A stretch of DNA of 64,000 nucleotides, taken from the sequence record ON528745. One strand, given 5' to 3'. Each line of letters starts with the position of its first letter. The stretch's first letter is position 1. This stretch comes from Shigella phage ESH35. The notes below the pieces were generated by a model. The model searched no databases and was not told the DNA's origin. It saw only the letters and a program-made list of their open reading frames with translations. Positions 575 through 18,567 of the stretch are shown here, in pieces. The translations under genes were made by a program, and so were the position numbers.

Positions 575-1483
575 ATGTTTAAACGTAAATCTACTGCTGA
601 ACTCGCTGCACAAATGGCTAAACTGGCTGGAAATAAAGGTGGTTTTTCTTCTGAAGATAAAGGCGAGTGGAAACTGAAACTCGACAATGCGGGTAACGGT
701 CAAGCAGTAATTCGTTTTCTTCCGTCTAAAAATGATGAACAAGCACCATTCGCAATTCTTGTAAATCACGGTTTCAAGAAAAATGGTAAATGGTATATCG
801 AAAATTGCTCATCTACCCACGGTGATTACGATTCTTGTCCAGTATGTCAGTACATCAGTAAAAATGATTTGTACAACACTGATAATAAAGAGTACAGTCT
901 TGTTAAACGCAAAACTTCTTACTGGGCTAACATTCTTGTTGTAAAAGACCCAGCTGCTCCAGAAAACGAAGGTAAAGTATTTAAATATCGTTTCGGTAAG
1001 AAAATCTGGGATAAAATCAATGCAATGATTGCAGTTGATGTTGAAATGGGTGAAACTCCAGTTGATGTAACTTGTCCGTGGGAAGGTGCTAACTTTGTAC
1101 TGAAAGTTAAACAGGTTTCTGGATTTAGTAACTACGATGAATCTAAATTCCTGAATCAATCTGCGATTCCAAACATTGACGATGAATCTTTCCAGAAAGA
1201 ACTGTTCGAACAAATGGTTGACCTTTCTGAAATGACTTCTAAAGATAAATTCAAATCGTTTGAAGAACTGAGCACTAAATTCGGTCAAGTTATGGGAACT
1301 GCTGTGATGGGCGGTGCCGCTGCAACTGCTGCTAAGAAAGCTGATAAAGTTGCTGATGATTTGGATGCATTCAATGTTGATGACTTCAATACAAAAACTG
1401 AAGATGATTTTATGAGCTCAAGCTCTGGCAGTTCATCTAGTGCTGATGACACGGACCTGGATGACCTTTTGAATGACCTTTAA
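575..1483 (+). CDS. 32: Single-stranded DNA-binding protein gp32
   Basis: 302-aa product [17 protein letters not shown]...[22 protein letters not shown] with acidic Ser/Asp C-tail and Cys/His zinc site typical of T4 gp32; AU-rich operator upstream. Confidence 0.95.
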
Positions 1484-1505
1484 TAGATTATATTACTAAT
1501 TAATT

Positions 1506-1531
1506 GGGGACCCTAGAGGTCCCCTTTTTTA
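1506..1531 (+). terminator. Rho-independent terminator after gene 32
   Basis: GGGGACC-CTAGA-GGTCCCC followed by TTTTTT. Confidence 0.75.
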
Positions 1532-1556
1532 TTTCAAAAAATTTTTTCACAAAACG

Positions 1557-1586
1557 GTTTACATCCTTGTCCTTCCATGGTACTAT
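1557..1586 (+). promoter_or_regulatory. T4 early-type sigma70 promoter
   Basis: GTTTACA -35, 17-nt spacer, TACTAT -10. Confidence 0.6.
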
Positions 1587-1629
1587 ACAACTATCGGCAA
1601 TACTGCTGATGATCAAAGAGGAAAATAAT

Positions 1630-1860
1630 ATGGCTAAAGTTGATATTGACATCGTTGATTTTGAATATATTGAAGAGATTATTCGTAATCGTTATCCTGA
1701 ACTTAGTATCACAAGTATTCATGATGATCCCAATTATTGCAATTTTTCTATTGTCATTGAAGGTCCTCTTGAAGACCTTACCCGCTTTATGGCTAATGAA
1801 TATTGCGATGGCATGGATTCTGAAGACGCAGAATTTTACATGGGACTGATTGAACAATAA
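1630..1860 (+). CDS. Hypothetical small protein (76 aa)
   Basis: ATG at 1630 preceded by AGAGGA; the longer ORF-track start at 1504 would span a terminator and promoter. Confidence 0.55.
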
Positions 1861-1906
1861 TTATCAAGGGGCTATTTGATAGCCCCGTTAAAATGAGGAA
1901 ATCAAA

Positions 1907-2293
1907 GTGGAAGTTGGAAAAACTTATATCATTAACCCTTTATTTAAAAATGACTTTGCTAACGAGTGCCGTTGCAATGTAATGATGCTAAATTTAATAG
2001 AGAAGCACGGACCTAGTTTTGTTGTAGATGAAATGGAAAGTGATGATTGTGCTGGTGAATGTGTGGTACGTGTAACTATGGAAGATGGTACTGAATACAT
2101 GGCGGGTGGCCCACTTGAGACGTATTTTGAGATTTACTCTGAAGAATTCAAATACTTTACTGAGGTAACTTTAGAAAAGCCTCAATCCGCTAATGAAGGT
2201 ATAGTTTCTGGCGTAACAAAAATTCACTGCATTGTTGACGAAAACAATGTAGATGAAATCATTGAACTTTTGCGAAAAACTTTCAAAAAGTAG
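1907..2293 (+). CDS. Hypothetical protein (128 aa), paralog of the 2352-2726 ORF
   Basis: GTG start 6 nt after GAGGA; shares GKxY...HGxSFxVxxM...DGT...YFE pattern with the next ORF. Confidence 0.55.
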   Translation: MEVGKTYIINPLFKNDFANECRCNVMMLNLIEKHGPSFVVDEMESDDCAGECVVRVTMEDGTEYMAGGPLETYFEIYSEEFKYFTEVTLEKPQSANEGIVSGVTKIHCIVDENNVDEIIELLRKTFKK

Positions 2294-2799: not shown

Positions 2800-3042
2800 A
2801 TGAGATTACAACGTCAGAGCATCAAAGATTCAGAAGTTAGAGGTAAATGGTATTTTAATATCATCGGTAAAGATTCTGAGCTCGTTGAAAAAGCTGAACA
2901 TCTTTTACGTGATATGGGGTGGGAAGATGAATGCGATGGATGTCCTCTTTATGAAGATGGAGAAAGCGCAGGATTCTGGATTTATCATTCTGACGTCGAT
3001 CAGTTTAAAACTGATTGGAAAATTGTGAAAAAGTCTGTTTGA
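2800..3042 (+). CDS. Hypothetical small protein (80 aa)
   Basis: ORF with RBS GGAG upstream; downstream of an early-type promoter. Confidence 0.55.
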   Translation: MRLQRQSIKDSEVRGKWYFNIIGKDSELVEKAEHLLRDMGWEDECDGCPLYEDGESAGFWIYHSDVDQFKTDWKIVKKSV

Positions 3043-3052
3043 GGAAAATATT

Positions 3053-3408
3053 ATGTCTGACATTCGTGTAGCTGGAATTGCTCGAGTAAGTATTCGTTGC
3101 CAACTTAAAACTGCGCCCGGGACGGCTTATATTAATTTATCACACGACCTATGTTCTAGTGAAAGACCATTAACTGGTGTAATTACGTTTTACGCTGGAG
3201 TTGGCGGAAACGAATTTACTGTAGGCGAATTTGTTGGTTGTAAATTAAAAGTTCAGAAGAATGTGTTAGAACTTTTTAGCGATCTTTATGGTGATAGTGA
3301 TGAAGTTTTTGATGAAATCGCGCAAGCAGTTAACAGAGGAATGGTAACTTTAGTTAAAATGATTAAAGATAGCGGATTTGCTTCTGGCCCCTTTCAGTGG
3401 GAGGTAAT

Positions 3409-3412
<4 letters not shown>
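3053..3412 (+). CDS. Hypothetical protein (119 aa)
   Basis: ORF tightly packed after the previous gene with GAGGA RBS. Confidence 0.55.
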
Positions 3413-4235
<823 letters not shown>

Positions 4236-16970: not shown

Positions 16971-17306
16971 ATGTCTGAAGTACAACAGCTACCAATTCGT
17001 GCTGTCGGTGAATATGTTATTTTAGTTTCTGAACCTGCACAGGCTGGTGATGAAGAAGTTACAGAATCAGGACTTATTATCGGTAAACGTGTTCAAGGTG
17101 AAGTTCCTGAACTGTGTGTAGTTCACTCTGTTGGTCCTGATGTTCCTGAAGGTTTCTGCGAAGTTGGTGATTTGACTTCTCTTCCAGTTGGTCAAATTCG
17201 AAATGTTCCGCATCCTTTTGTAGCTCTGGGTCTTAAGCAGCCAAAAGAAATTAAACAAAAATTCGTCACTTGCCACTATAAAGCTATTCCATGTCTTTAT
17301 AAGTGA
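16971..17306 (+). CDS. 31: Co-chaperonin gp31 (GroES-like, capsid folding)
   Basis: 111-aa product [19 protein letters not shown]...; size and position of T4 gp31. Confidence 0.85.
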
Positions 17307-17453
17307 TATAAATAATAATATGAATTGGGTGTCGGAATAATAAGTTAACCGAACAATTCTATGTGGTAGTCTACAACTGAGAGATCTGTCGAAAGAAGAT
17401 GAAATTCAGAAGAACGTGACTACCGAGTTTTAATCTCTAACGAGAATTTTTAA

Positions 17454-17702
17454 ATGATTAAACAATTACAACACGCTCTTGAACTGCAACGAAACGCATG
17501 GAATAATGGTCACGAAAACTATGGCGCATCTATTGATGTTGAAGCCGAAGCTCTTGAAATCCTGCGTTATTTCAAACATCTAAATCCTGCTCAAACTGCA
17601 TTAGCTGCTGAGCTTCAGGAAAAAGATGAACTTAAGTATGCTAAGCCTCTGGCTTCTGCTGCACGAAAAGCAGTTCGTCACTTTGTGGTAACATTGAAGT
17701 AA
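17454..17702 (+). CDS. rIII: Lysis inhibition accessory protein rIII
   Basis: 82-aa ORF MIKQLQHALELQRNAWNN...; size and position of T4 rIII. Confidence 0.8.
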   Translation: MIKQLQHALELQRNAWNNGHENYGASIDVEAEALEILRYFKHLNPAQTALAAELQEKDELKYAKPLASAARKAVRHFVVTLK

Positions 17703-17947
17703 TTTATTGGAGATTCACTGCCTTAGTGTGAGCTAAAATCGAGGAGCCATCGAACTGTCTGATTAATGATTTGCGAATCATTATAGTTTTAAGACCCCGG
17801 CAGTTTTATGGTGTACCTCTTGAATGTGAATGATGACGGGTTTATGGTTATCCTGGTCGTTAAATACCCAAAAACCTATGTTCCCCTTGAGGGCTTGCGC
17901 AGGCAATGCCAATAAGTCCTGCATTTTCATTTAAAAGAGAATTTATA

Positions 17948-18124
17948 ATGGCAAAACAAGCTAAAGCAAAGAAAGCAGTTGAAAAGAAAGTTGGTGATTC
18001 TAAACGCGCTGGTTACAAGCGTGGGTCGAACTCTCGTATCAATCAAACTGTTGAGAAGATCATGCGCCGAGCACGTGCGGTTCTTCGAGATGATGCTTCT
18101 CGTTTTGGTAAGCAGAAAGCATAA
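17948..18124 (+). CDS. Hypothetical small lysine/arginine-rich protein (58 aa; start uncertain)
   Basis: ORF MAKQAKAKKAVEKK...; followed immediately by a strong terminator hairpin. Confidence 0.45.
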   Translation: MAKQAKAKKAVEKKVGDSKRAGYKRGSNSRINQTVEKIMRRARAVLRDDASRFGKQKA

Positions 18125-18128
18125 GTTG

Positions 18129-18158
18129 AGGACTCCTTCGGGAGTCCTTTTTTATTTT
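18129..18158 (+). terminator. Rho-independent terminator
   Basis: AGGACTCC-TTCG-GGAGTCCT followed by TTTTTTATTTT. Confidence 0.8.
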
Positions 18159-18177
18159 CCAAAGATTGCATAAAGTT

Positions 18178-18207
18178 GTTTACAGTATGGTTCCTTTGTG
18201 ATAGTAT
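18178..18207 (+). promoter_or_regulatory. T4 early-type sigma70 promoter
   Basis: GTTTACA, 17-nt spacer, TAGTAT. Confidence 0.6.
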
Positions 18208-18234
18208 TATCTTACACAAACAAAGGAGAATAAA

Positions 18235-18567
18235 ATGAAAACGATTAATCTGAACGCTGCAGTTAAAGCTAAATGCTTCAATGGTGAATATAACGAAACT
18301 ATGTGGTTCTTAATGGCAGTTGAAGGTGATATTATTGAAGTAGAAACAACAGAAGGTATGGGAACAGATTTCACCTTTACAATTCAAGTTCATAATTTCT
18401 TTACTGGTTGGATTTATGAATTGAATACAGTAATCGTTGGAAAAATTGAACAAAATGAATTAGGTGAATGGTATTATGTTACAGCTCGCCAACGTGCCGA
18501 ACGCTTAATTGAGAAGATGAAAAAAGTCGGTAAGCTTGACATGAAGCACTGGAAAGTAGTAAAATAA
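18235..18567 (+). CDS. Hypothetical protein (110 aa)
   Basis: ORF with AAAGGAG RBS downstream of an early-type promoter. Confidence 0.55.
   Translation: MKTINLNAAVKAKCFNGEYNETMWFLMAVEGDIIEVETTEGMGTDFTFTIQVHNFFTGWIYELNTVIVGKIEQNELGEWYYVTARQRAERLIEKMKKVGKLDMKHWKVVK

Follow-up and report, generated by a model that had tools for sequence, protein, structure and literature searches.

The rIII-30.9 gap and its coding potential

The 64,000-nucleotide (nt) stretch of Shigella phage ESH35 DNA studied here (record ON528745; the whole stretch is called the window) comes from a T4-type genome, in the orientation opposite to the T4 map, and contains a gap of about 245 nt (17703-17948) between the end of rIII at 17702 and the start of gene 30.9 at 17949. 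Comparison with relatives indicates that this gap is a mosaic of separable, autonomously folding RNA modules on the plus strand, one of which, module A, was found in four phage lineages (Tevenvirinae, Kuravirus, Vequintavirinae and Justusliebigvirus), twice among tRNA genes. The positions of the modules and of the features around them are given in Table 1.

Over 17400-18250 the window matched Shigella phage SfPhi01 at 100% identity and T4 at 98-99%, the T4 counterpart being a 244-nt gap (NC_000866.4, 130541-130784) without any annotation; in all, the gap sequence was present in 767 phage records. Against Dhakavirus PSD2002 and Yersinia phage P8, identity was 95-96% in 17737-17828 and 89-94% in 17829-17922, or 94-96% for module A and 89-94% for module B, as compared with 83-85% for rIII and 73-74% for 30.9, so that a non-coding stretch is better conserved here than the genes on either side of it. 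A first-pass annotation of the window, made without database searches, had called for a covariance analysis across T4-like genomes, and the comparison was positive on both counts, with the gap more conserved than its flanks and its helices covarying on the plus strand.

The gap is modular. In alignments of its variants the 3' block, termed B (17835-17942), was nearly invariant, and relatives differed by indels of 1, 44 and 154 nt. The autonomy of the modules was apparent in phages that keep only some of them: HY01-type phages retain B only, and HMD-9 and STML-198 retain only the basal helices of A. The segment carrying module E (17703-17736 as a whole) is likewise optional, being absent from F2, PSD2002, ECO111 and HY01.

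Table 1. Features of the rIII-30.9 region of the window, followed by copies of the modules in other phages (positions of the latter are those of the stretches examined; aa, amino acids; ORF, open reading frame).
Feature	Position	Strand	Description and basis
Late-promoter motif TATAAATA	17307-17314		directly after the gene 31 stop
rIII coding sequence	17454-17702	+	82-aa ORF; PHROG 1457 (lysis inhibition accessory protein), E = 4.7e-44; upstream gene
Module E	17714-17732	+	hairpin UUCAC / GUGAG, 9-nt loop; comparison of relatives
Module A	17734-17828	+	95-nt extended hairpin; covariance model, RNAalifold, pair counts
Module A, helix P1	17741-17744 / 17816-17819	+	
Module A, helix P2-P3	17747-17759 / 17799-17811	+	conserved C-U mismatch, invariant G-U pair
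Module A, helix P4	17764-17771 / 17776-17783	+	8-bp stem of the first-pass annotation
Variable A/B junction	17832-17833		empty in the window; 44-nt or 154-nt structured insert in many relatives
Module B1	17835-17878	+	hairpin GACGGG / CCUGGUC (17835-17840 / 17852-17858), then conserved linker GUUAAAUA
Module B2a	17883-17893	+	short hairpin CCC(C)-UUGA-GGG; comparison across Tevenvirinae
Module B2b	17899-17922	+	GCAGG / CCUGC stem of the first-pass annotation; conserved 14-nt loop CAAUGCCAAUAAGU
Hairpin AUUUUC / GAGAAU	17923-17942	+	over the Shine-Dalgarno-like GAG of 30.9; minimum free energy (MFE) fold
Gene 30.9	17949-18124	+	conserved 58-aa basic-protein ORF; matches T4 gp30.9; downstream gene
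Intrinsic terminator	18128-18149	+	closes the rIII-30.9 unit; 9-bp GC-rich stem, then U-tract
Module C, SHFML-26	905-1058		
Module C, Merlin	1150-1295		
Module C, PKM.Lu.22.1	1501-1633		
Vequintavirinae array, A5-4	1338-1999		
Vequintavirinae array, W70	2853-3467		
phi92 insert	3001-3352		5' edge of tRNA-Gln
PHB05 empty site	about 1000-1020		5' edge of tRNA-Gln

The first-pass annotation had seen no convincing ORF of at least 60 aa within the gap, and the ORF list bears this out: the longest frames are 49 aa on the minus strand and 35 and 34 aa on the plus strand, none of them conserved, and a 72-aa ORF starting at 17906 is a mere 5' extension of 30.9. That the gap encodes one or more small proteins (a 35-aa coding sequence at 17808-17915, a 34-aa ORF at 17830-17934, or a 72-aa form of 30.9 from 17906) is in our view highly improbable. 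These ORFs exist and are annotated in some records, but most relatives have ACG in place of the ATG at 17808, which covaries with the bases that it pairs with in the RNA. Dhakavirus has ACG at 17906, a 1-nt indel falls between 17906 and 17949, and the single-nucleotide, 44-nt and 154-nt indels together break every frame. The 34-aa ORF belongs to a (U)AUGAUG motif that is conserved at the 5' edge of B1 (17829-17834) in most genera and that opens ORFs of 34, 19, 10, 5 or 4 codons depending on the phage, a further point against a conserved product. This motif is probably structural, though it could also be the start of a tiny leader ORF.

Analysis of the gap corrects spurious coding-sequence calls that are present in many deposited genomes. 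In the SfPhi01 record, the 35-aa ORF at 17808-17915, inside modules A and B, is named 'protein rIII' and 30.9 is lengthened to 72 aa (17906-18124), and in several RAST-annotated genomes 30.9 is labelled '1,4-alpha-glucan branching enzyme'; all three are mis-annotations. The 30.9 protein matched no Pfam or PHROG family. On the other side of rIII, gene 31 ends at 17306, leaving 147 nt (17307-17453) between gene 31 and rIII.

Plus-strand folds of the gap

Two stems had been picked out in the first-pass annotation, and both proved real and were upheld by comparison with relatives. The perfect 8-bp stem TAATGATT-TGCG-AATCATTA, which had been placed near 17765-17785, lies exactly at 17764-17783, and the GCAGG/CCTGC stem has its arms at 17899-17903 and 17918-17922 around a loop of 14 nt. 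In dinucleotide shuffles of the gap, a perfect hairpin of at least 8 bp arose by chance in 35 of 2000 and a 5-bp stem in 1893 of 2000, the GCAGG/CCTGC stem being unremarkable when taken alone.

The 8-bp stem is helix P4 of module A, the covariance model of which scored 118 bits at the locus and found a single copy in the 64-kb window (next best match, 17 bits). RNAalifold predicted 25 pairs for the module, 12 of them with compensatory change. With a structure of our own and 19 sequences, 95% of cells were paired and 12 pairs had changed on both sides; none of 500 shuffles reached the covariation score, and slid controls were 34-56% paired. In a second alignment of 32 distinct sequences, which was fitted to the covariance model and so leans towards structure (MAFFT with RNAalifold independently agrees), 98% of cells were paired, 12 of the 23 pairs had changed on both sides and 62 cells were doubly changed. 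Neither the covariation score nor the number of doubly changed cells was reached by any of 500 shuffles, the count of doubly changed pairs was reached by 6 of 500, and slid controls gave 25-67%. Four of the pairs changed on both sides are in P4. The junction nucleotides GGAGC, UCGAA, CUGAUUA, UAUAGUUUUA and GUGUACC were unchanged in distant copies, while the helices between them differed at many paired positions. Compensatory pairs beyond those of controls, on a defined strand, are the general mark of a structured non-coding RNA, and module A displays them. A pseudoknot between the A-rich 5' flank of the module and its GUUUU junction was rejected (78% paired, no covariation).

The strand of module A is given by its wobble pairs, as one G-U pair is kept in every one of the 32 sequences and 15 of them have a U-G pair, and both would be A-C mismatches on the minus strand. 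These pairs bear in turn on the idea that the conserved sequence acts as DNA, for example as an origin, a hotspot of recombination or a site to which a protein binds, an idea to which we give next to no credence. The region is very conserved and recombines between phages, but its conservation obeys the rules of base pairing, including G-U pairs that exist on one strand only, and the gap showed neither repeats nor promoter motifs.

In the 3' half, the three outer pairs of B1 take five Watson-Crick forms across genera (GAC/GUC, GGC/GCC, GUG/CAC, GUC/GAC and GUU/AAC). A possible pseudoknot of the B1 loop GGUU (17846-17849) with AACC (17873-17876) is suggested by partners that have both switched in Merlin (UUGUGAG/CUCACAA) and that reach 7-10 bp in KpV477. 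The B2a hairpin was present in every Tevenvirinae form examined, with altered sequences (CCUC-UUA-GAGG in PS2, GCCU-UCG-AGGC in Cronus), as was the B2b hairpin, the stem of which is ACUGG/CCAGU in STML-198, carries a G-U pair in variant L018, and elsewhere reads GGGAGC/GCUCCC (Merlin and KpV477), GGAAC/GUUCC (CIP9) or GGCGA/UCGCC (Cronus). B2b does not have the make-up of an intrinsic terminator, as the terminator scan was silent there and a 5-bp stem with a 14-nt loop is followed by the tail AUUUUCAUUU, whereas a terminator should have a G+C-rich stem, a loop of only 3-8 nt and a U-tract directly after it.

The last hairpin of the gap, AUUUUC/GAGAAU, had 90% of its cells paired among T4-like phages. 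Elsewhere the Shine-Dalgarno (SD) sequence of 30.9 is occluded by other means, with UCUCCA/UGGAAGA in Merlin, KpV477, CIP9 and STML-198 and CCUC/GAGG in Cronus. That three different sequence solutions all hide the SD of 30.9 supports translational control of this gene. Hand comparison across genera found compensatory pairs on a defined strand, as in module A, for the B1 outer stem, B2b and the SD hairpin; within the close T4-like phages the pairs of B are invariant and so uninformative.

The modules that are not present in every gap also show paired changes. In module E, two pairs read directly from the sequences had changed on both sides among relatives, one from A-U to G-C in Mosigvirus and Klebsiella types and the other from C-G to U-A in KpV477. 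Module C, the 154-nt insert at the A/B junction (146-154 nt across relatives), was present in 404 phage records, mostly at 93-98% identity across genera, and is the main occupant of the rIII-30.9 gap in T4-like phages of Klebsiella, Enterobacter, Citrobacter, Erwinia and Serratia. Its fold as predicted by RNAalifold has 45 pairs, 20 of them compensatory, and likely includes kissing loops; it gave no Rfam hit. Module C was also found in the Grimontviridae phage PKM.Lu.22.1, where an E-like hairpin and a terminator come after it.

A perfect 8-bp long-range complementarity was observed between UUUAUUGG (17703-17710, directly after the rIII stop) and CCAAUAAG (17909-17916), the latter sitting in the loop of the GCAGG/CCUGC hairpin, and a second complementarity adjoins it (CACUGCC with GGCAAUG, or GGCAGUG in STML-198). 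The UUUAUUGG/CCAAUAAG pairing is present in the MFE fold but is lost in Mosigvirus-type sequences, and it was rejected.

Searches for known families and signals were negative within the gap. No Rfam 15 model overlapped 17703-17948 at E-values up to 10, and none gave a hit to the corresponding regions of seven relatives, among them carriers of A, B, C and E, at E-values up to 1; Atu_C8, the one hit in the vicinity (31 bits; gathering score, 50), corresponds to the terminator downstream of 30.9. ARAGORN called no tRNA or tmRNA in the window or in SHFML-26, and the Rfam tRNA model hit only neighbouring genes in W70, A5-4 and phi92. Against T4 rnaC and rnaD, blastn-short returned only matches of 8-12 nt (E >= 0.016). 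No sigma-70-like, MotA-type or late promoter motif was found in the gap. Of the candidates considered and rejected, a RegB/S1 site would require the consensus GGAGRAYARAA, which neither GGAGAUUCACU (17709) nor GGAGCCAUCGA (17743, in helix P1 and the adjoining internal loop) fits, and a PeSL cassette is not indicated, as the gap holds no promoter-like site and the module A model has a single copy in 64 kb. K-turn, loop-E, C/D-box, boxA, hammerhead core, 11-nt tetraloop receptor and CRISPR-repeat likenesses were inspected by eye, and their key nucleotides were absent or not conserved.

Module A in other phage lineages

Module A has spread horizontally beyond the T4-like phages. In Kuravirus, module A stands alone in ES17, SU10, 172-1 and about 28 of 74 matching records, as a clean insertion of about 100 nt between the gene for a 157-aa protein with no assigned function and terL, directly upstream of an intrinsic terminator; Kuraviruses of the phiEco32 type have the same flanks without module A. 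This position would suit a ligand- or factor-sensing attenuator, riboswitch-like or akin to a put-like antiterminator RNA, that controls read-through into downstream sequence. Pairing is possible between the 3' strand of P1 and the terminator's 5' arm, this complementarity tracks sequence change in two variants (CCCUU/AAGGG in ES17 and CCUC/GAGG in L056), and conserved junction nucleotides are typical of binding pockets. We nevertheless consider attenuation improbable as the role of module A, since Kuraviruses without A retain the same terminator, T4-like phages have 0, 44 or 154 nt of structured RNA after A with no canonical terminator and no fixed platform, Vequintavirinae have tRNA-type RNAs there, and no known riboswitch or antiterminator family was matched.

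In the Vequintavirinae phage A5-4, module A is followed by B1 and the last 11 nt of the T4-type gap, and then by an atypical tRNA-like RNA, tRNA-Met and a homolog of T4 rnaD (species 2 RNA), which shares GUAAGUCGUCGGACUGAUG and CACAGCAGAAACGGCGCACC with its T4 counterpart. This array covers 675 nt between two promoter-like sites and contains no annotated coding sequence. W70 and A73, of the same subfamily, have kept module A and lost B1. The atypical tRNA-like RNA (3106-3184 of the W70 stretch) scored 35.8 bits with the Rfam tRNA model, was not called by ARAGORN in W70 and is entered as 'tRNA-OTHER' in some records; close copies of it (85-94% identity) were seen elsewhere, namely in Felix O1-like phages, the jumbo phage PBECO4, Klebsiella phage KpS8, phi92-like phages and a Kuravirus-sized phage.

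These locations bear on the possibility that the whole gap, module A included, is a purely cis-acting element of the rIII-30.9 mRNA, that is, a processing or stability signal or an insulator that gives the two cistrons separate fates. Candidates would be a site of RNase III or RNase E type and a block to exonucleases or Rho, which would be portable because any operon can use an insulator. Consistent with this, module A is in every case internal to a transcription unit, either between genes or in front of tRNAs, without a promoter of its own. In ES17 its position is immediately ahead of the terminator, within the 3' untranslated region of the gene upstream, and its interrupted helix of about 20 bp resembles, by analogy, the intercistronic processing hairpins generally known from phages. 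The invariance of CUGAUUA, UAUAGUUUUA, GUGUACC and GGAGC while the helices around them change, however, exceeds what a generic double-strand signal would need, the A5-4 copy stands in an array of non-coding RNAs where no cistron that it could insulate is annotated, and the two GGAG motifs misfit the RegB/S1 consensus. We regard a purely cis-acting gap as unlikely, if a serious alternative.

In Justusliebigvirus (phi92, arall and related contigs), the whole gap was found at 99.6% identity inside a tRNA cluster. The phi92 insert is permuted, running E-A-B and then the last 83 nt of rIII; it is flanked on both sides by the 13-nt sequence TTTATTGGAGATT, in which the first 8 nt of tRNA-Gln are contained. 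PHB05, a related phage that lacks the insert, has TTTATTGGAGATT only once. A permuted insert with a 13-nt duplication is the expected product of a small circle integrating via short homology, which is the mechanism that we infer from the junctions. Mini-circle cassette shuffling in T4-type phages was reportedly described by Arbiol et al. in 2010, and the phi92 insertion would fit such shuffling. The phi92 gene product gp113, annotated as 'putative rIII', is the acquired rIII fragment. Four records named 'Campylobacter phage' (MG065639, MG065645, MG065656 and MG065689) carry the T4-type gap and were 100% identical to phi92 over the 301 nt tested; by sequence they look like misnamed phi92-type coliphages.

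Mobility of this kind raises the question of whether the modules might be no more than mobile DNA of a selfish or neutral sort, as miniature cassettes that T4-type recombination moves about and whose conservation reflects recent spread. Presence/absence polymorphism in every lineage, the short-homology insertion in phi92 with its duplication and its permutation as if from a circle, the deletions in Vequintavirinae copies and the reported mini-circle shuffling all speak for it. The helices, however, survive many compensatory and wobble changes in lineages that have diverged by 20%, which requires selection on the RNA fold, and mobility and function do not exclude one another. A purely selfish or neutral nature is therefore very improbable.

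When IMG/VR, GTDB genomes and metagenomes were scanned by pattern, all occurrences were in T4-like, phi92-like or Kuravirus sequences, apart from chance AT-rich matches. No homolog of module A was found in 5,426 complete E. coli genomes, which argues that the module is not derived from the host.

Interpretation and related systems

The reading that we favour, with moderate confidence, is that the gap is a co-transcribed chain of folds, of which the 3' half is a leader of 30.9 and module A is a portable, independent RNA. The gap would be transcribed on the plus strand within an rIII-30.9 mRNA, for which the terminator placed after 30.9 and the lack of a promoter motif in the gap both count, and would fold into a chain of autonomous structures. 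B1, B2a, B2b and the hairpin over the ribosome-binding site would act in cis on 30.9; with the SD hidden by the last hairpin, translation of 30.9 may depend on folding or processing of the leader. Module A, in turn, would be a self-contained element working independently of 30.9, as suggested by its thriving where no 30.9 follows, and would pass between phage lineages via short-homology recombination. It probably makes a functional RNA. Judging from its place in the A5-4 stable-RNA array and in tRNA clusters, it is most likely a discrete stable RNA, or else a site bound or processed by a host factor that E. coli phages have in common.

The first-pass annotation had proposed that the gap could encode either a small RNA or a leader that regulates the basic protein downstream. 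The leader part of this agrees with a last hairpin that covers the SD of 30.9, as hairpins of other sequences do in relatives. As a whole, the proposal was too simple: the gap is a mosaic, and the module with the 8-bp stem also occurs in unrelated phages without a 30.9-like gene downstream, so that module A is not solely a leader of 30.9.

Several points weigh against the favoured reading. The MFE of the whole gap is ordinary (z = -1.46 on the plus strand and -0.53 on the minus strand); together with the shuffle counts given above, this makes the sequence by itself weak evidence, and the case is carried by comparison with relatives. Between genera, the identity of A and B could stem in part from recent recombination rather than from selection. 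The structure of the B modules draws on a few distant genera and on hand comparison, and the duplexes of the B1 pseudoknot in single sequences were not above chance. The progressive deletion from A5-4 to W70 may mean that the element is decaying in Vequintavirinae. The literature searched held no expression, end-mapping or probing data for the gap; nothing on the rIII-30.9 intergenic region was found in a search that did not cover Driukas & Nivinskas 2003 (Biologija, rIII and 30.9 expression).

A bolder version, which we hold to be rather unlikely, is that A, B1, E and C are all portable RNA cassettes, exchanged among unrelated phages of E. coli and other enterobacteria as small circles that integrate at short homologies, often into tRNA-type operons. 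As stable RNAs they would act in trans and might, for instance, serve as sponges or decoys, the target being a nuclease of the host, an RNA-binding protein or a molecule of immune signalling. If this were true, an RNA-based layer of host takeover or counter-defence would lie hidden in the best-studied phage.

T4 is the reference phage, yet an unannotated stretch of 244 nt in its genome holds RNA folds under stronger constraint than the neighbouring genes. Sequence comparison places these folds among phage structured non-coding RNAs, as one or several apparently new families of a familiar kind, which may overlap with the 10,006 candidates of a viral RNA survey (PMC10690425). Module A is a concrete candidate for such a family and can be tested through the easy genetics of T4, and relatives hold several more. 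Should host factors prove to be the targets of these RNAs, the short list of phage non-coding RNAs with known function would grow.

Known systems resemble parts of the gap in different ways. The early mRNA of T7 is processed at intercistronic RNase III hairpins, and module A, with its interrupted helix of about 20 bp and conserved internal loops, likewise lies between cistrons of a phage operon. Unlike the T7 hairpins, its junctions are conserved far beyond a double-strand signal, and it is also present where there is no cistron to separate. In the T4 genes e, soc and 49, hairpins sequester the ribosome-binding site, and transcription from a late promoter within the hairpin gives an mRNA that is shorter and can be translated. 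Similarly, the SD-like GAG of 30.9 is covered by a short hairpin located 7-26 nt before the AUG, an occlusion that is kept across genera with different sequences, but no late-promoter motif is found in the 30.9 hairpin.

PeSLs are said, going by the titles of Arbiol et al. 2010 (PMC2839356) and a related PeSL paper (PMC4122927), to be composite promoter-terminator motifs. The modules of the gap share with PeSL cassettes that they are short, non-coding and made of stem-loops between genes, and that they are gained and lost among close relatives by short-homology recombination; they differ in having neither a promoter-like site nor a canonical terminator, and in being long single-copy folds rather than a dispersed repeat. 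The GOLLD, ROOL and Y-RNA-like YrlA RNAs are structured non-coding RNAs carried by phages, often in or near tRNA clusters, and module A too stands beside tRNA genes in phi92-like phages and in A5-4 and W70. Unlike these RNAs, module A has no Rfam match, is much smaller (95 nt) and forms a simple extended hairpin.

The closest parallel within T4 may be rnaC and rnaD (species 1 and 2), structured non-coding RNAs of about 120-140 nt that are expressed with the tRNAs and whose function is unexplained. Module A has no sequence similarity to them, is known from sequence alone, and in T4-type phages lies between two protein genes and not in the tRNA cluster. In A5-4, by contrast, it shares an array with an rnaD homolog, the tRNA-like RNA and tRNA-Met, and through this Vequintavirinae array module A might illuminate the long-unexplained stable RNAs of T4.

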